A stretch of DNA of 32,000 bases from Opitutales bacterium (GCA_965219535.1 CBDCNV010000002.1:1590001-1622000), one strand, 5' to 3'; shown: positions 10,923 through 26,463, counted from the first letter of the stretch. Translations and numbers: made by a program. The notes: generated by a model not told the origin, from the letters alone.

Positions 10923-11077
10923 ACCTATACCCAGGATTTATGTTTGAAAGATGTCGTCCCGCAGTTTCGGGACGAGATATTACAAGCGCAACCTGATCCC
11001 TTTCTTATTTTGATAATTATGATAGAGCGCTGTAGTGAAGTCGTAACCAGGCAGCTGTTCCATACTCAAGGAGCAAC

Positions 11078-14578: not shown

Positions 14579-15076
14579 GGCGATTGCGGATTGCCGAATT
14601 TAGATTGACGATTGAAATACCTTGTCATCGCGAGGCTGCTTGTCAGCCGTGGCGATCCAGGGGACTGTCGGTTGCGTTTATTCATTCGCCTGGAATGGAA
14701 GATGTCGGACTTCGTCCTCGGAAGCCACGTCGCGTTGCTCCTCGCAATGACAATAAAAAAAATCCACATTCTGCAATCCGACATCCTGAATACTGCATCG
14801 TGCATCCGGTAACTTGCAGCATGCATCATAAATCAATCGACCACCGCTATCGCGTAGGCAACATCCACCATTGATAATTTAAATAACTTTTTAGGCGATG
14901 AGGGTTGAAAGTTGAAGGCCATATCAATTGCGAATTGCGGATTGATATAGAATGCAAGGAACAAAATAACCCTAACGACTTTCTTTCCACCTATATTTAA
15001 TTTCTACCTTTGACTCTAATTCTCCACCTCCCTAAAACTTAAAACCTAACACTGAAAAATCCATAATTTTTTCATT

Positions 15077-19928: not shown

Positions 19929-20105
19929 AGCGCCAGAGTTATATCCAGCTGGGTGGTCTTTTAGTATTATAATCAGACCAATAGGTTTCGAGTTTTCTCT
20001 CACTTCAGCCAGTTTACATAATATCTCTGTGTTAAGAAGTTCATCACGTAAGCGTTCATTGAAGCTCTCAATATAACCATTTTTACTGTTTTGCCTTGGT
20101 CGAGA
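19929..20105 (-). pseudogene. ISb-like transposase orfB 3' fragment
   Basis: It aligns with ISb 26990-27175. For example, gttaagaagttcatcacgtaagcgttcattgaagctctcaatataaccatt matches gttaagaagttcatctcgtaagcgtccattgaagctctcaatataaccatt. It is truncated on both sides. Confidence 0.75.
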
Positions 20106-20710
20106 TCACGGAAACTGGGCCACCTGGAAAGGACACAGACAATGAAAGGCAAAAGCTACACAACAAAAGAGAAAATGCGGATACTGAGGCAGGCGGACAA
20201 ATGGATAACGATCATGGAAGCATGCTGCGAGAACAACATAAACGAACATACCTTCCACCGCTGGAAGCGTGAGTTTGAGATGATGGATGTCAACGAGGTC
20301 AAGCGGATGATGAAGCTTTTTGGATAAAAACGCACAGCTAAAACGGAGGCTGACGGACAAGATGCTAGGGATAGAGATCCTGCAGGAGCCCCTAGGGAAA
20401 AAATGGAAAATGTCGATTAAGCTAGGTAGTAAGGTCCTGGGACTTTGTCCATGATCGCACAGACAATGACGGTCCATTAAAGATGATGACTCTGATCGAT
20501 GAATATACGCGTAAATGCCTCGATATCCGGGTAGCTCGTCAACTCACCTCAGCCGATGTCCTCTCTGTGCTTAGCGAGGCCATTGAAGAGGAGGGAGCTC
20601 CTAGCTATATCCGTAGTGACAACGGCAGTGAGTTCATTGCTCATCAAGTGTAGCAGTGCTTGTCTGACAAAAACATCAAGGCGGTCTATATAGATCCGGG
20701 CAGTCCCTGG

Positions 20711-20755
20711 CTACCGAGCGAAGCGACACCTCAACGAGCCATAGCGAGAATAACA
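20711..20755 (+). repeat. Mini-insertion I3 (45 nt) in ISa copy 1
   Basis: ctaccgagcgaagcgacacctcaacgagccatagcgagaataaca splits the canonical IS3 motif PGSPW-x-NGFIESF, adding LPSEATPQRAIARIT. Confidence 0.7.
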
Positions 20756-20795
20756 AACGGCTTCATCGAGTCGTTTCACAACCGCTTACGCGATG

Positions 20796-20832
20796 TACCG
20801 AGGAACGTAGTTACGACATAACGAAGCGCTCA
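20796..20832 (+). repeat. Mini-insertion I4 (37 nt), present in ISa copy 1 only
   Basis: Copy 2 reads cgcgatgAGtgtttgaacc (RDECLN). Copy 1 reads cgcgatg-taccgaggaacgtagttacgacataacgaagcgctca-tgtttgaacc. Confidence 0.7.
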
Positions 20833-21094
20833 TGTTTGAACCGTGAAGTGTTGCTCAGCATAGCTGAAGCACAAGTGGTAATCGAACAATGGCGTCATAC
20901 CTACAATAATGAACATCCCCACAGTCGTTTAGGCTTCAAAAGCCCACAAGAGTTTGTCAGATTCCTTTCCGATCTTGGCCGCGTTCAGGCTACGCCCTCA
21001 CTACGCCTAGATCTCTCCTATACATCAATCCTAAAACCATTAACACCCGGTAACTCTCTCACTTAAAAATTAGTACGAAAGACGGGGTCCAATC

Positions 21095-21850
21095 ATGACT
21101 TTCGATTCATTAATTTCTGATGCGCTGAATCACAAAATTTCTGGTTGGAACTTTTCCTATATAGAAGAGAGATCCCTGATGGAAGATCTCAAGTGGAATT
21201 ACCGAGAGATTGTGTCCAGCAGATTTAAGCCTGACATTACTTTATTGGATATGGGAACGGGCGGTGGTGAGCTTTTGGCATCCTTCAGGGGCTTACCCGA
21301 GAATACGATTGCTACAGAGGGCTACCCTCCCAATGTCCCTGTCGCCCGTAAAAGACTGGAGTCACTGGGTATTCAGGTCTTCGAGGTATCAGAGGATCTC
21401 ACCTTGCCTTTTGATGACAAGTCCTTTGACTTAATCATCAATCGTCATGAAGCCTATTCATCCGACGAAGTTTATCGCATTCTGAAAGATGACGGCCAGT
21501 TCATTACTCAGCAGGTAGGCGGATCAAATAATTTCAGGTTAAACGAGCTCTTACAGGATACCCCGACTAATAGCTTCGCACACTGGAATTTAGACTTCGA
21601 TTTAAAGGAGATTGAAAATGCATGGTTTAAAATAGGTGAAAAAAGGGAGGCGTTTCCAAAAACACAATTTCTCGATGTTGGTGCCATTGTATTTTACATT
21701 AGGATGCCCCCTTATCAGTTCTCCGATTTTTTTATAAATAAATACCGCGACGGATTATTTAAAATCCATCAATACATCCAAGAAAAGGGAAGTCTGGAGG
21801 TTCAGAGCCATCGTTTCCATTTTGAAGCATATAAATCTCCTCTCAACTAA
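21095..21850 (+). CDS. Class I SAM-dependent methyltransferase
   Basis: 251 aa. Motif I is LLDMGTGGGELL, followed by an acidic post-I region and FDLIINRHE. No DNA-MTase motifs (D/NPPY, PCQ) were seen. The ATG lies 3 nt after the ISa copy 1 terminus. Confidence 0.85.
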   Translation: MTFDSLISDALNHKISGWNFSYIEERSLMEDLKWNYREIVSSRFKPDITLLDMGTGGGELLASFRGLPENTIATEGYPPNVPVARKRLESLGIQVFEVSEDLTLPFDDKSFDLIINRHEAYSSDEVYRILKDDGQFITQQVGGSNNFRLNELLQDTPTNSFAHWNLDFDLKEIENAWFKIGEKREAFPKTQFLDVGAIVFYIRMPPYQFSDFFINKYRDGLFKIHQYIQEKGSLEVQSHRFHFEAYKSPLN

Positions 21851-21909
21851 CAATAAAGATTCGATACAGTAGGTATTATAGTACATTCATTTGAAAGTTA
21901 CTTATTCAG

Positions 21910-22656
21910 ATGAACGAATATACAATGTTATGTACCGAGATGTATGATCTCGATAAACCAAGTGCTCCGGACGATGTTTTATCTTTTTACCTGGATTATG
22001 CAGAAAAAGCTAAAGGACGCGTGTTAGCACCGATGTGTGGTACTGGCCGATTTCTGATTCCGCTATCGGAGAGAGGTTTTTCCATAGATGGATTCGACAA
22101 CTCTGTATATATGTTAGAAGCCTGCAAAAGAAAGTGTGAGACTATGCAACTTAATGCAAATTTATGGAAAGCGAATTTAGAAGATTTTGATGCCAGCAAG
22201 CAGTATGCTCTGATTCTCATACCATCGGGTTCGTACGGGTTAATAATCTGTGACGATGCTGTTGCAAAAAGTTTAAAAAATATGAAAGACCATCTTTTGC
22301 CGGGTGGCACCCTTGTCCTGGAAATCGAGACCCCTTCAATTAAACCCGATAACTCTATTGAATGGGTCGAATCTAAGAGAAGAAAAAGAAAAAATGGGGA
22401 CATCATAGTCGAAAATGTTAAAACGAGCTATGATACAGAAAAAAGATTGGCGATTTTTCATCTCCGGTATGAATTATTGACTGGGAATAAAATTGTTGAA
22501 ACCGAGTGCATGGATTTAGTTACACGGTTATATTACATCGAGGAATTTGAAGACATTCTTAAAGCCAATGGGTTTAATAAAATTAAATCATTAAAAGCAT
22601 ACGATCAAACTACACCGGGTGTAGATGATGGGACAGTCGTTTTCGAATGCAAATAG
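21910..22656 (+). CDS. Class I SAM-dependent methyltransferase
   Basis: 248 aa. Motif I is VLAPMCGTGRFLIPL, then DGFDNS and YALILIPSGSYGLI. The segment is AT-rich compared with neighbouring blocks. Confidence 0.85.
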   Translation: MNEYTMLCTEMYDLDKPSAPDDVLSFYLDYAEKAKGRVLAPMCGTGRFLIPLSERGFSIDGFDNSVYMLEACKRKCETMQLNANLWKANLEDFDASKQYALILIPSGSYGLIICDDAVAKSLKNMKDHLLPGGTLVLEIETPSIKPDNSIEWVESKRRKRKNGDIIVENVKTSYDTEKRLAIFHLRYELLTGNKIVETECMDLVTRLYYIEEFEDILKANGFNKIKSLKAYDQTTPGVDDGTVVFECK

Positions 22657-22810
22657 CCAATCTTGAGAAAATGATTGGGTGTTGATCATCATGGCCGAAT
22701 ATATGATCAGTCCACAGGGAGTCCGTATGGGACGGTCAAGCCGTATTCATATATCCATACTTGTAACGGATCAGAAAATCGGGTTGTGTCTCAGTTTAAA
22801 TTTACATGGA

Positions 22811-22854
22811 GTGCCCCAAAAATCGTATCATTTACAGAGAGAGGTTATCGGGAT
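22811..22854 (+). repeat. Solo left terminal repeat of ISa (remnant)
   Basis: gtgccccaaaaatcgtatcatttacagagagaggttatcgggat matches the ISa copy 2 left end tgaccccaaaaaatggtatcatttacagggagaggttatcgggat. Homology stops after ~44 nt. Confidence 0.75.
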
Positions 22855-23475
22855 CGTTTGTCGATAATTTACGGCCATTTTAAAGGGGTGCCCCTGCTAG
22901 ATTTTTTGATTATACCCCCAATTGTAGCGAGTGCCTCATCAGTAATTACTGGAGCATCATGGAGCCGGGCTGACCCTACATTGTAGTATATACCTCCCCT
23001 TGTCCCTATTGCAGTGTAATATAGATTTTATATGCTAAAGGGCTTCATTTTGGTGTCAAAAGCGAAGCTTTTGGGGACTGTAAGCGTTTTAATTTCGGAC
23101 CTTCGGTATAGGACAATATAACATAACATCACTATATTAAGGGCAAAGGAAACCCCTGTGGGAATGACGGGGGGTAGTTCAGCGAAGAGCAAGCAGATCA
23201 GCTGATCGAGGGAGTAGCACCTAGGCAGCCACATTTAATAATTGCTTACTAGCATAACATAGGTTATTTTAATAGCTAGCAACAAACCAAAAACGTGAAA
23301 ATTAGTTAACGGATTTTAACCCCAAAATTATCTCAATCAGCAGTGATAAAATGAATTTATTGGTGTCTGAACTTAATGATACTAGGGGCATCTATTTTAA
23401 AGACTATTCTAAGCTATTTAGATGGTGAAAACTTGCACTTACTCTGCATTAGATAAAATATTAAACTGAATCGTT

Positions 23476-23910
23476 ATGGATAAGAAACAAAAACATTTTG
23501 AAATGATACAAGGAGTTATTAATAGGTTATCTCAAAACTCTTTCCTCCTTAAAGGGTGGAGTGTTATCTTGGTTTCTGCACTATTTGCTCTAGCTGCGAA
23601 TAATACTAATCCCGCTTTTATATTTCTGGCATATTTCCCAGCGTTAGCGTTCTGGATTTTAGATGGATACTATTTATGGCAAGAACGCCTATTTAGAGCT
23701 CTATATGATTATGTCAGAGGATTAGATAATGAGGATATCGATTTCTCGATGAACACATCCGTCGTAAGTAAAAGCGTGGATTCATGGCCATGTGTTATAG
23801 TATCAAAAACACTTTTAATATTTCATTTAGCAGCTGTTCTTGGTGCTATTACAATTGTCGCGGCTATAATGATAATTCAAATATGTGGAGGTTTATGCAA
23901 TGCCTCGTAG
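23476..23910 (+). CDS. Small three-TM membrane protein (144 aa), candidate effector partner of the adjacent TIR-like protein
   Basis: An in-frame tga lies 2 codons upstream of the ATG. Predicted TM segments are GWSVILVSALFALAA, AFIFLAYFPALAFWILDGYYL and TLLIFHLAAVLGAITIVAAIMIIQICG. An amphipathic linker WQERLFRALYDYVRGL lies between TM2 and TM3. The 3' end overlaps the next gene by 11 nt. Confidence 0.7.
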   Translation: MDKKQKHFEMIQGVINRLSQNSFLLKGWSVILVSALFALAANNTNPAFIFLAYFPALAFWILDGYYLWQERLFRALYDYVRGLDNEDIDFSMNTSVVSKSVDSWPCVIVSKTLLIFHLAAVLGAITIVAAIMIIQICGGLCNAS

Positions 23911-24346
23911 AGTATTTTTCAGCTTTCATTACCAACGAGATATTTGGAGGGTTAACCAAATTAGAAGCATGCAAAATATAATAGGTAGTTCTGCTGCTGG
24001 TTTTGAAGATGCTTCATTATGGGAAGCAACAAGAAAAAGAGGTAGTTATGCAATTAAAAGACTTATAAATAATGGATTAAAAAATACATCTGTTACTGTA
24101 GTATTCATCGGTGCAAAAACTTCTCGAAGAAAATACGTAAACTATGAGATTGACCAATCAATAAAGAGGGGAAACGGAATAGTTGGCATCCAAATACACC
24201 ATCTAAAGAATGAGAAGGGTTATGGAGATATGAAAGGTCTTATCCCTTACAAACTCAAGGGTAAAGGTTACAAAGTTTATAAATATTATAATCGCGTATT
24301 ATTGGCTAAACAAATTGAAGAAGCTGCCAAAGCAGCAGGTAAGTAA
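23900..24346 (+). CDS. thsB: ThsB-like TIR-like (DUF1863 type) domain protein
   Basis: The track ORF starts at GTG 23885, but ATG 23900 has a GGAGG (23887-23891) 8 nt upstream, so I prefer it. MPRRVFFSFHYQRDIWRVNQIR...AAGFEDASLWEATRKRGSYAIKRLINNGLKNTSVTVVFIGAKTSRRKYVNYEIDQSIKRGNGIVGIQIHHL closely parallels the Bacillus cereus ThsB sequence as I recall it (RVFFSFHYQ...RVN, ASLWE, LKRLIN-GL-NTSVT, R-x-V-x-YEI, GN-I-GI-I). Confidence 0.85.
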   Translation: MPRRVFFSFHYQRDIWRVNQIRSMQNIIGSSAAGFEDASLWEATRKRGSYAIKRLINNGLKNTSVTVVFIGAKTSRRKYVNYEIDQSIKRGNGIVGIQIHHLKNEKGYGDMKGLIPYKLKGKGYKVYKYYNRVLLAKQIEEAAKAAGK

Positions 24347-24378
24347 TATTAGTTTTATGCCTAACCAAGGCGCTGCAT

Positions 24379-24428
24379 CTTAGCTAGTCTATACCTTGGC
24401 TTATGGTAGACTGCACCAGCTAAGTTTT
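24379..24428 (+). terminator. Possible intrinsic terminator after the TIR-like gene
   Basis: The outer stem is cttagct (24379-24385) / agctaag (24418-24424). The inner stem is agtcta (24386-24391) / tagact (24407-24412). It is followed by tttt (24425-28). The loop is long and the T-run short, so the call is weak. Confidence 0.3.
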
Positions 24429-24633
24429 GCTCACCGCATAGGTTTCCACTAACCATTCGACAATCGCCTTCTTGCGCACAGGTTTTATAACTTTTTTGCG
24501 ATAACTTCCTGCAGCATGTGCTTGTCCAGACTCAGCTCAGCTACCAGCTTCTTCAAGCTGGCGTTCTCTTCGTCGAGCTGCTTCAGCCGTCTTAACTTGC
24601 TCATTCCCATGCCCGTGTATTTACCTTTCTGGT
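24424..24633 (-). pseudogene. ISb fragment (orfA 3' end / orfB 5' end), truncated by ISa copy 2
   Basis: It aligns with ISb ~27727-27938, including the slippery run cttttttgcga. It stops abruptly at the ISa terminus at 24634. Confidence 0.8.
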
Positions 24634-24934
24634 TGGACCCCGTTTTTCGTATCAATTATTAAGTGAGAGAGTAACCGGGTGTTAATGGTTTAAGGATTGA
24701 TGTATATGAGAGATCTTGGCGCAGTGAGGGCGTAGCCCGAACGCGGCCAAGATCGGAAAGGAATCAGACAAACTCTTGTGGGCTTTTAAAGCCTAAACGA
24801 CTGTGGGGATGTTCATGGTTGTAGGTCTGACGCCATTGTTCGATTACCCCTTGCGCTTCAGCCACGCTGAGCAACACTTCACGGTTCAAACACTCATCGC
24901 GTAAGCGGTTGTGAAACGATTCGATGAAACCATT

Positions 24935-24979
24935 TGTTATTCTCGCTATGGCTCGTTGAGGTGTCGCTTCGCTCGGTAG
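24935..24979 (-). repeat. Mini-insertion I3 (45 nt) in ISa copy 2
   Basis: Same block and same site as 20711-20755. Confidence 0.7.
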
Positions 24980-25057
24980 CCAGGGACTGCCCGAATCGAT
25001 ATAGATCGCCTTGATGTTTTTGTCGGACAACCACTGCTGCACTTGATGAGCAATGAA

Positions 25058-25090
25058 TGGCTTCGCATGTCGTCGCTTCGCTCCTCGGAA
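25058..25090 (-). repeat. Mini-insertion I2 (33 nt), present in ISa copy 2 only
   Basis: Copy 1 reads aacggcagtgAGttcattgc (DNGSEFIA). Copy 2 reads aacggcagtg-ttccgaggagcgaagcgacgacatgcgaagcca-ttcattgc. The net change is +31 nt, which breaks the frame. Confidence 0.7.
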
Positions 25091-25217
25091 CACTGCCGTT
25101 GTCACTACGGATATAGCTGGGAGTACCCTCCTCTTCAATGGCCTCGCTAAGCACAGAGAGGACATCGGTTGAGGTGAGTTGACGGGCGACCCGGATATCC
25201 AAGCATTTACGCGTATA

Positions 25218-25261
25218 TGTCTTCGCTTCGCTTGAGTGTCGTCGCTTTCAGCTCCTCGGTA
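25218..25261 (-). repeat. Mini-insertion I1 (44 nt), present in ISa copy 2 only
   Basis: Copy 1 reads gatcgatgAAtatacgcg (LIDEYTR). Copy 2 reads gatcgatg-taccgaggagctgaaagcgacgacactcaagcgaagcgaagaca-tatacgcg. The net change is +42 nt. Confidence 0.7.
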
Positions 25262-26023
25262 CATCGATCAGAGTCATCATCTTTAATGGACCGCCATTGT
25301 CTGTGCGATCATGGACAAAGTCCCAGGACCAAACGTGATTGCGACCGGTTGCTTTAGTAGGCGACCCTGTAGAGATCCCTTGACGGTGTCTACGCTTTTT
25401 CGGTGGCTTTACCTGCAACCCTTCTGAACGTCGTACCGCCTGAACAAACTTCCTGCTTGTTGTCCAGCCTTCCTTTACAAGCAAGGCACGGATGCGACGG
25501 TAACCGTAGCGAGGATGTTCCCAGGACAGGGTTACAATCCGCTCGGCCAATCGCTGAGCTTTCTTATTGGCCTGCTTGGGCCGGTAGCTGTACGTTGACC
25601 AACTGAGGCTGAGATAAACACAAGCCCTCTAAAACGAGCACAGCCCTCGCTCAGCCGCATCTTTTACTACTCGCTTCTTCTGCTTTGGGCTCACCACTTT
25701 TTTGACAACGTTTCCTCCATTACCTGATTCTTGAGCATTTGATCAGCAAGCAGCTTCTTCAACTCGGTGTTTTCTTTTTCCAGTTCTTTAAATCGCTAGA
25801 GCATCGGCCAGTTCTAAATGGCCATACTTTTTACCCCAGCGATAGAAGGTCTGTTCACTTAGATTGTTGCCTCGGCAGATTTCCTCTACCGTTTTCCCGG
25901 TATCGGCTTGCCGCAGTATTGCGATTATCTGTTCTGTTGTCTATCGTTTTCTTTTCATTGAGGTTATCTGTTTATCCCGATAACCTCTCCCTGTAAATGA
26001 TACCATTTTTTGGGGTCACTCAA

Positions 26024-26172
26024 CCCACAAGAGTTTGTCAGACTCCTTTCAGATCTTGGCCACGCTCGGGCTGCGCCCTCACTTCGCCAAGATCTCTCAT
26101 ATACATCAATCCTTAAACCATTAACACCCGGTTACTCTCTCACTTAATTATTGGTACGAAAAACGGGGTCCA
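26024..26172 (+). pseudogene. ISa 3'-terminal fragment (copy 3), abutting copy 2 in opposite orientation
   Basis: cccacaagagtttgtcagactcctttcagatcttggcc...cacttaattattggtacgaaaaacggggtcca matches the last ~150 nt of ISa copies 1 and 2, including the terminal repeat. Confidence 0.8.
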
Positions 26173-26463
26173 ATCACCACTAAACATGGGATAATTAATC
26201 GGGATGTTCACTTCAGAGGCGGATGCCCACTTCCGGGTAATCTTCAGTCTCTTGAGGATAATATTTCCTGTCATAAGGGCGCGAACATCTTCTCGATGCT
26301 GTGCTAATTGACCTCGAAGATTTTTATTAGCTGTATTGATCCTCTCATTAATATGTTTTGTCAGTCGACATTCCATTTTAGACATATCCTTGCTTAATTC
26401 AGTCACGCCGTTTTTTAATGTTGCCAGATCATTGCGCAATGGCTGAACAGCTTTAGTAATCAC
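26140..26463 (-). CDS. Hypothetical coiled-coil protein fragment, C-terminus replaced by IS sequence
   Basis: The ORF uses a GTG start, but the frame stays open upstream to ~26511 with no convincing start. It has a heptad-like sequence LRNDLATLKNGVTELSKDMSKMECRLTKHINERINTANKNLRGQLAQHREDV. The last 11 codons are encoded by the ISa copy 3 terminus. It is probably a disrupted gene. Confidence 0.3.
   Translation of the reverse strand: MITKAVQPLRNDLATLKNGVTELSKDMSKMECRLTKHINERINTANKNLRGQLAQHREDVRALMTGNIILKRLKITRKWASASEVNIPINYPMFSGDWTPFFVPIIK

Follow-up and report, generated by a model that had tools for sequence, protein, structure and literature searches.

The IS3-family copies and the four blocks

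We analyzed a 32,000-nucleotide (nt) stretch of genomic DNA from an Opitutales bacterium (GCA_965219535.1, CBDCNV010000002.1:1590001-1622000; hereafter, the window), in which four short blocks interrupt the transposase genes of closely similar insertion sequences (ISs). The segments at 20.1-21.1 kb and 24.6-26.2 kb of the window are decayed copies of IS3-family elements, with the genes orfA (HTH_Tnp_1) and orfB (rve/rve_3). Copy 2 of the element, denoted here ISa (24630-26022, minus strand), is full-length and contains both orfA and orfB, although it is a pseudogene that carries three of the blocks (I1, I2, and I3) along with other stops. Copy 1 (20440-21095, plus strand) consists of the 3' two-thirds of orfB and the right end, and carries I3 and I4; a third ISa fragment, from the 3' part of the element, spans positions 26023-26176. 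Copies 1 and 2 are 93% identical and belong to separate sublineages. The bacterium is marine, the window lies on a 722-kb ENA metagenome contig, and the closest public relatives of the window are long-read metagenome-assembled genomes (MAGs) of Opitutales (phylum Verrucomicrobiota).

Realignment of copy 1 (plus strand) with copy 2 (minus strand) using MAFFT, with the block limits checked on the raw sequence, recovered the four blocks and the coordinates given by a first-pass annotation that had been made from the DNA sequence alone. I1 (25218-25261, minus strand; 44 nt), which reads TACCGA-GGAGCTGAAAGCGAC-GACAC-TCAAGCGAAGCGAAGA-CA, and I2 (25058-25090, minus strand; 33 nt), which reads TTCCGA-GGAGCGAAGCGAC-GACAT-GCGAAGC-CA, are present in copy 2 only; I4 (20796-20832, plus strand; 37 nt), TACCGA-GGAACGTAGTTAC-GACAT-AACGAAGCGCT-CA, is present in copy 1 only. 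I3, TACCGA-GCGAAGC-GACAC-...-CA, is common to both copies (24935-24978, minus strand, in copy 2; 20712-20755, plus strand, in copy 1), as had been noted, but its length is 44 nt in each rather than 45 nt because the additional C counted previously is found also at empty sites. All four blocks start with T(A/T)CCGAG at their first base, end with CA, and lie in one shared orientation within orfB.

Each block takes the place of exactly two bases (AA for I1 and I3, AG for I2 and I4), where the first-pass annotation gave 2-3 nt. I1 replaces AA in the Glu codon of the LIDEYTR motif and contains an in-frame TGA; I2 replaces AG in the Glu codon of DNGSEF, with a net gain of 31 nt and hence a frameshift; I3 replaces AA in the Gln codon of PWQNG and remains in frame, adding 14 residues; and I4 replaces AG in the Glu codon of RLRDECLN, with a net gain of 35 nt. 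A broken frame or a new stop thus results from three of the four blocks. Their hosts are transposase pseudogenes, and most of the block-bearing copies contain additional stops; judging from the distribution of the units, the blocks probably inactivate transposase genes through a frameshift or an in-frame stop. Some caution is due in the annotation of such loci, where the blocks split transposase open reading frames (ORFs), make recombination joints between ISs, and yield spurious peptides, such as VPRSEAT and LPSEATPQRAIARIT.

Insertion polymorphism and the junction rule

In intact 306-amino-acid (aa) OrfB relatives (96% identity, encoded on Mb-scale contigs), the LIDEYTR, DNGSEF, GSPWQNGFIESF, and RLRDECLN motifs are uninterrupted, and none of the four blocks is present. 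Because these near-identical intact relatives lack them, the blocks are insertions and not deletions in the other copy, in agreement with the original proposal. The possibility of an artefact, which had been raised as something to check, is addressed by the recurrence of the blocks in independent assemblies, namely, two ENA samples, two GTDB MAGs, and one further ENA contig, and therefore the blocks are not an assembly artefact; one contig from a second sample (L002) is the same sequence as the window (99.8%) and carries no independent weight. The similarity among the blocks exceeds chance: the four separately delimited indels open with an identical heptamer in one register, and the pattern CCGAGGA-N0-12-CGACR is matched 7 times in the window, compared with 0.05 matches expected.

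Five comparisons between paralogues show a unit of the form T...CA standing in place of AR, with no target duplication. Four of these are the IS sites of I1-I4, with the empty states TG-AA-T, TG-AG-T, GC-AA-A, and TG-AG-T, respectively (the replaced bases are set off by hyphens). The fifth involves a core unit of the repeat family described below that is located in another IS (locus L010), where 13 empty paralogues read CTTAC-AG-TTTTTT and the filled site reads CTTAC-unit-TTTTTT. The same CTTAC/TTTTTT site of filled versus empty paralogues is occupied in the window by a fifth IS-borne unit (TACCTAGCTTAATCGACATTTTCCA; 20404-20428, minus strand), which was missed in the first-pass annotation and lies in the foreign IS3 fragment that makes up the 5' part of what had been taken as copy 1. 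That copy is a hybrid: orfA and the beginning of orfB (20091-20439) come from a different IS3 element, and the joint, at about position 20440, falls within the conserved stretch that encodes WSWDFV.

Heptamer arrays in metagenomes show a matching arrangement. The units in these arrays occur in one phase, CCCTGAA CCCTG-unit-CCCTGAA, that is, AA is replaced after TG; units are found also in arrays of the AATCCGC type at metagenome loci. A target motif, which had been suggested before, is apparent in the transposase gene: the sense strand of the block-free orfB (921 nt) contains four TGA(A/G)T sites, three of which are occupied by I1, I2, and I4, and the fourth, the catalytic IES codon, is empty in all copies seen. 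Where filled and empty states can be compared, a unit replaces the AR of (T/C)G-AR-T-type sites, or of GC-AA, without duplication. Comparison of the metagenome contigs with the MAG loci yielded only one case of an orthologous filled and empty site, in L145 (3725-3785) and L128. One of these contigs, which are 98% identical, has two core units in tandem where the other has one; the allele with one unit combines the head of the first unit with the downstream flank of the second one and so resembles a recombinant, and the difference is better explained by recombination between the tandem units.

A family of miniature hairpin repeats

The blocks have numerous relatives outside the four IS sites. 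About 25 additional units, of the form TACCGA - stem/loop - GACAT - C-YYY-CA, were identified in 1.47 Mb of Opitutales loci around IS copies, and a scan of JGI metagenomes yielded 71 stretches (557 kb) containing 110 units whose stems measure 3 bp or more. Among the 71 metagenome loci, 30 share 67-92% identity with the Opitutales loci or the window over 0.5-7 kb and therefore belong to one marine clade. The first-pass view of a single related family, with members in the same orientation and some located outside the ISs, is thereby extended to further Opitutales loci and to metagenomes. Members of the family range from 24 to 45 nt, with core units of 24-28 nt and a usual genomic form of 28 nt (the consensus of the metagenome units is TACCGAGGGC-NNN-GCCCGACATCTTCCA); in marine metagenomes and related Opitutales genomes, they are dispersed in intergenic DNA, in heptamer arrays, and within other repeats, and the IS-borne blocks are longer variants of this core form.

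All members share the same anatomy: T(A/T)CCGA, a stem-loop of variable sequence closed by a G...C pair, GACAY, a short tail, and the terminal CA. The G...C pair closes exactly between the conserved flanks in each of the 25 units analyzed, including I1-I4, and the mean contiguous stem in these units is 2.76 bp, compared with 0.53 bp for shuffled inserts. The stems covary, with the arms GGGC/GCCC, GGAC/GTCC, GCGT/ACGC, GTCG/CGAC, GTCCCG/CGGGAC, and GTCCCGC/GCGGGAC. In I1, I2, and I4, the stem includes two tandem G.A mismatches (GGAGC...GCGAC, GGAAC...GTGAC, and GGAGCT...AGCGAC), and the tails hold a second mini-hairpin of the GCGAAGC type. A K-turn reading of the GGAGC...GCGAC stem was considered and dropped on inspection by eye because the core units lack G.A pairs.

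A narrow covariance model of the 28-nt form, built solely from metagenome units outside the window, aligns I3, I4, and I1 from their first base and detects a window unit at 14696-14723 (minus strand) at E = 2.6e-7, which bears out the earlier report of related units at 14700-14751. This core unit (28 nt; TTCCGA-GGAC GAA GTCC-GACATCTTCCA) lies inside the right arm of an intergenic REP-like dimer (REP, repetitive extragenic palindromic sequence); the model also recovers the fifth IS-borne unit (20404-20428) and a headless core-type unit, TCCCG AAACTG CGGGA-CGACATCTTTCA, located in intergenic DNA at 10945-10972 (minus strand). What places the I-blocks themselves in the family is that their first seven bases are identical and in fixed register, that GACAY comes after a stem closed by G...C, and that they end in CA.

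Searches in other directions were negative. The core units produced only chance-level matches in a plasmid database and two chance matches, both in coding DNA, in viral contigs; the unit sequence strings retrieved only primers from the literature; and no Rfam family matched anywhere in the window at E <= 1. Within the 1.47 Mb of Opitutales loci, no unit was found in a genuine non-IS coding sequence, the two candidates being located upstream of the real starts.

Comparison with known repeat classes

According to the first-pass annotation, no bacterial class this small had been described, but REPs, which comprise the GTAG- and CGTC-tagged superfamilies, are 20-40 bp long (Di Nocera, De Gregorio & Rocco 2013, PMC3733652). 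The CGTC REPs have a CGTC/TGTC (or CCTC) tag, an 8-9-bp stem starting with A-T, a loop of 4-5 nt, and a CCA tail, occur predominantly as head-to-head dimers, and have no known transposase (PMC3733652). The units described here resemble CGTC/TGTC REPs in that a (C/T)GTC tag abuts the stem on the reverse strand (GACA or GACG 3' of the stem in 25 of 25 units) and in being mostly intergenic, at times nested, and without a known transposase. They differ in that the stems are 1-7 contiguous bp long and open with G-C, the loops are mostly 3-6 nt, asymmetric tails (TCGGTA/TCGGAA on one side and ATCYYYCA on the other) replace CCA, and the units are single or tandem rather than head-to-head dimers; furthermore, clean filled and empty sites with AR replacement are found here and none are reported for these REPs (PMC3733652). 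Given that the stem, tail, and dimer features do not agree, the units are REP-like but fall outside the described families; neither is there a GTAG at either end of the units, in contrast to GTAG REPs and REPINs.

REPs are mostly intergenic but are at times nested in other palindromes or in genes, and Opitutus terrae, a member of the same order, Opitutales, was singled out for intragenic, GTAG-tagged REPs (PMC3733652). These and the Rickettsia palindromic elements share with our blocks the location of short palindromic repeats inside protein-coding genes but, unlike the blocks, mostly stay in frame in expressed proteins. The small dispersed repeats of cyanobacteria (SDRs; SDR1-8) are reportedly 21-27-nt dispersed units with a predicted hairpin, that is, equally small, and have reportedly been found in Nostocaceae only. 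They are said to be nested in repeats and in tandem heptamer arrays, with insertion inferred from comparisons of filled and empty sites. By this description and PMC5861425, the small hairpin units, the nesting, the heptamer arrays, and the insertion polymorphism are all shared with the family described here; SDRs come from a different phylum, and their sequence is apparently different.

The miniature elements of the IS200/IS605 type (palindrome-associated transposable elements, PATEs) and the REPs associated with the RAYT transposases are similar to the units in hairpin-based recognition, lack of duplication, and strand-specific orientation, and the 3' end of the units lies about 11 nt past the hairpin foot, like the right end of IS608. 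The left flank of the units, however, varies (TG, GC, or CG), and the AR that follows is replaced, whereas the insertion point of elements of the IS200/IS605 type lies 3' of a fixed tetra- or pentanucleotide, with the target left intact; an IS200/IS605-type miniature element was rejected on the ground that the target is not left intact. A MITE (a miniature transposable element with terminal inverted repeats), one of the options in the first-pass annotation, was rejected as well because its inverted repeats have no counterpart in the ends of the units (TACCGAG and ...CA), the target is not duplicated, and two bases are lost. The blocks are, then, lineage-specific repeats that are close to both the CGTC/TGTC REPs and the SDRs and are strict members of neither.

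Distribution of the blocks among IS copies

Forty-eight IS copies were aligned with MAFFT. Among the 38 of them that belong to the ISa clade, which come from two MAGs and from the window, the same four blocks are found at the same four sites, nearly invariant in sequence and in 10 of the 16 possible combinations. The same blocks also occupy homologous sites in distant IS3 relatives, where the flank preceding I2 is GGCAGTG, GGTTCCG, or GATTCGG. Nucleotide diversity within the blocks is 0.008-0.025, compared with 0.09-0.125 in the 100-nt flanks. The MAG CBDANS01 contains two bursts of near-identical copies, lineage X (at least 8 copies) and lineage Y (at least 12 copies; the loci of the two bursts are L044-L051 and L054-L065), both of which carry I1 and I2; no block-free copy was found among the ISa copies returned for this MAG. 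All 73 block bases of I1 and I2 are identical between X and Y, despite a synonymous divergence (dS) of 0.35 and a dN/dS of 0.16. All copies of lineage Y share a premature stop at codon 22 of orfB; because this lineage expanded despite the stop, it must have been mobilized in trans, and copy number says nothing on function.

Recombination among the IS copies is plainly frequent. Four gametes are observed for 18-53% of the pairs of single-nucleotide polymorphisms (SNPs), chimeras between ISa and a second element, ISb, are joined exactly at I2 (L006, L010, and L033), and a database protein (P0040) has a deletion between I2 and I3 that is joined in the shared GCGAAGCGAC.

The first-pass annotation took the presence-absence differences between copies 1 and 2 to mean that the blocks arrived after the IS was duplicated. 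The occurrence of the same blocks at the same sites throughout the 38 ISa-clade copies and in distant IS3 relatives contradicts this. Because the blocks are common to many IS copies, including lineages separated by a dS of 0.35, the copies in the window have inherited different allele combinations, so that the difference between them appears, as the data show in part, to reflect sorting of inherited alleles by recombination rather than fresh insertion.

Origin and spread of the blocks

We conclude that I1-I4 are probably DNA-level insertions of lineage-specific, non-autonomous miniature hairpin repeats of a REP-like or SDR-like kind that were subsequently reshuffled among IS copies. Each block would have arisen once at its site, and its spread would have involved trans-mobilization of block-bearing IS copies together with gene conversion or ectopic recombination between copies; a heterology of 31-44 nt might then act as a discrete unit, either moved as an unrepaired loop or bounding the conversion tracts; such recombination would generate the presence-absence combinations observed among the copies. 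To judge from their distribution, units inserted into ordinary genes are presumably purged, and those that persist would be the ones in dispensable transposase genes, in intergenic DNA, and in heptamer arrays and other repeats. By analogy with REP/RAYT or HUH/Y1 systems, the units might be mobilized in trans by an enzyme that recognizes a folded single strand; we hold this component of the scenario to be doubtful because the two-base replacement is atypical of such enzymes and no gene for one was found.

It has long been asked by what means the very small repeats of bacteria spread, whether for REPs without RAYTs, CGTC REPs, or the cyanobacterial SDRs, and such repeats are usually known as static intergenic copies only. 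A multicopy IS offers a natural trap, in which the same sites can be seen many times over, both filled and empty, and here the trap yields the unit boundaries (T...CA), the junction rule (replacement of AR), and the target preference (TG-AR-T), all of which constrain any proposed enzyme. It also exposes the precise, site-bound reappearance of blocks in diverged transposase genes, where the units behave as discrete entities in recombination between diverged IS copies.

Several observations count against this scenario. No strictly conserved 4-5-nt target precedes the units, which follow TG, GC, or CG (of the 110 metagenome units, 61 are preceded by G, 37 by C, and 6 each by A and T). At the I2 site of locus L075 (3563-3583), the insert consists of a 17-nt head, TTCCGAGGAGCGAAGCG, and a 4-nt AGTG duplication, which breaks the AR rule; this 21-nt variant is in frame, retains the Glu codon, and leaves a 313-aa ORF intact (protein P0014, from a cluster of 42 sequences), and it may record a different insertion or repair outcome. 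The narrow covariance model is weak on the blocks, with E values of 0.4 (I3), 0.9 (I4), and 2.6 (I1) and with I2 not among the matches listed; the I-blocks are therefore divergent, longer relatives of the 28-nt core. Nearest-neighbour folding of the blocks, with and without flanks, gave z-scores from -0.9 to +1.7, that is, no significant stability. A tblastn search of the 1.47 Mb for a mobilizing gene, using approximate sequences of IS200 TnpA and the Escherichia coli RAYT as probes, found none associated with the units; the only IS200-like match obtained with these approximate queries was in another MAG and was not flanked by units. The loss of two target bases is unlike the products of HUH/Y1 transposition, as in IS200/IS605, in which target bases are neither deleted nor overwritten.

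The remaining difficulties concern the spread of the blocks. Lineages X and Y, with their identical I1 and I2, differ by SNPs within 10-17 nt of both blocks, which is not easily explained by ordinary long-tract gene conversion. The four-gamete fraction between a block and the SNPs within 40 nt of it is 0.79 for I1, 0.50 for I2, 1.00 for I3, and 0.92 for I4; among 38 frequency-matched SNPs used as a control, it averages 0.21 and does not exceed 0.67. From the low diversity of the blocks, their identity across diverged lineages, and this decoupling from neighboring SNPs, it follows that the IS lineages are older than the blocks and that precise gain or loss of blocks has occurred repeatedly at the same sites. 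Such behavior would be accounted for by homing, in which a dedicated mechanism copies or removes the 31-44-nt blocks precisely at homologous transposase sites and leaves the flanks unconverted, as would the recurrence of the same blocks between differing flanks in distant relatives and the tie between block sequence and site. We nevertheless consider homing rather unlikely: there is no pairing between blocks and flanks beyond 5 nt, with cognate pairs no better than non-cognate ones, and no associated gene; recombination is rife among the IS copies, as both the four-gamete pairs and the chimeras attest; and gene conversion can look like homing if a large heterology bounds it or if it is confined to such a heterology. 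A more specific version, in which machinery that copies or excises the hairpin block at homologous (T/C)G-AR-T sites would spread an inactivating insert through transposases, seems slightly less probable again. If homing did occur, it would imply either a selfish mini-element far below the known size of homing elements or IS silencing favored by the host.

Templated repair, proposed in the first-pass annotation, would make the blocks patches of filler DNA for which REP-like hairpins served as the template when breaks in the ISs underwent end joining or template switching, and in this case, the loss of two target bases without duplication, the variable tail length, the odd L075 variant, and the 9 nt (CGTAGTGAC) that I4 has in common with the IS sequence upstream of the I2 site would all be natural outcomes. 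Such patches would hardly have the same first base and last two bases in every unit, a defined target motif, one orientation for all four IS blocks, and more than 100 dispersed copies with identical boundaries and covarying hairpins, and we regard this explanation as quite improbable. The blocks could also be excision footprints of a larger TG...CA element, another of the options raised originally, given that they follow TG and end with CA, like the ends of IS3-family elements. Outside the ISs, however, the two bases before a unit are GC, CG, or AC as frequently as they are TG, and in ISb, the same blocks follow CG; no longer parent element with such termini was found in about 2 Mb, and the 28-nt form is itself a conserved unit with a covarying hairpin. 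IS3 elements, moreover, transpose by copy-out, which leaves no footprints, and this option appears very improbable. The only matches to the I3 tail with a non-IS appearance, those in L006 and L007, were considered as a possible parent but proved to be degenerate IS fragments.

Still less credible is an intron-like or bypassed insert that would be cut out of the mRNA or passed over by the ribosome such that the transposases remain functional. In its favor are the at least 8 near-identical I1+I2 copies of lineage X, in which orfB is fully open once the blocks are deleted, the absence of block-free copies among those returned for CBDANS01, and the greater conservation of the blocks compared with the coding flanks. 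However, no contiguous deletion restores the conserved Glu or Gln (the best outcomes are Ala, Ala, Pro, and Ala, from GCA or CCA codons), and it is mainly because removal cannot restore the Glu codons and no unit is present in the sampled non-IS genes that we discount this reading. There are also no matching take-off and landing codons, no Rfam family, no folding signal, and no exon-intron pairing, and lineage Y proliferated despite its shared stop. Were the blocks nonetheless removed, block-free RNA would contain the joins GATG-CATATACG or CAGTG-CATTCATT.

Other repeats and genes in the window

The intergenic dimer that harbors the core unit at 14696-14723 is an inverted pair of repeats of another kind, denoted A units (14622-14753; TTGTCA-TYGCGAGG...). 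With its TGTC tag, stem starting with AT, CCA tail, and head-to-head arrangement, it fits the description of the CGTC/TGTC-tagged REPs, including the tail and dimer features (PMC3733652). The A-unit dimer reads TTGTCATTGCGAGG...GAAGCAATCCAGG, with a variable inner hairpin between ATTGCGAG and GAAGCAAT; core units are found nested in A units. The A-unit consensus is identical at 36 of 36 positions in a plasmid of Methylosinus trichosporium OB3b, and the dimer recurs, always unannotated, in Methylocystis, Novosphingobium, Legionella, Halomonas, and Nostocales plasmids; it is pan-bacterial and is also present at L076 2501-2590, L077 2501-2590, and L078 301-420.

A 22-nt hairpin unit of the same style lies near the 3' end of orfB in copy 1 (20982-21003, minus strand; reverse complement TAGTGA-GGGC GTA GCCT-GAACG), with further copies at 24723-24744 and 26066-26087; the reverse complement also takes the form AAGTGA-GGGC GTA GCCC-GAACG. 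This unit is antisense and sits inside a palindrome, GATCTTGGCCG-...-CGCCAAGATC; it is present in every ISa copy, also in those that are intact, in which it codes for a portion of the C-terminal tail, and is missing from some relatives. In orfA, related IS3 elements have polymorphic blocks of a second style (L005 19372-19399, L007 18460-18487, and L004 352-388): one block, TTCACGAGGCGCAGCCGAGAAGGCCTGA (28 nt), follows codon 5 (MKSKG) and introduces an in-frame TGA, and another, TTCACGAACCCAAGCGAGAAGGCCTGAC, lies in the leucine-zipper region.

By Pfam, the ORFs of the window encode only IS3/IS481 transposases, methyltransferases, a ThsB-TIR protein, and similar products. The region between the IS copies (23476-24346) contains a gene for a ThsB-like TIR-domain protein (Thoeris-type, PF08937), overlapped upstream by a 144-aa membrane-like ORF and adjoined by two class I methyltransferase genes; it may represent a small defence islet bracketed by ISs. 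The G+C content of the window is uneven, at 55-63% in the segment from 1 to 4 kb and 36-47% at about 19-32 kb.

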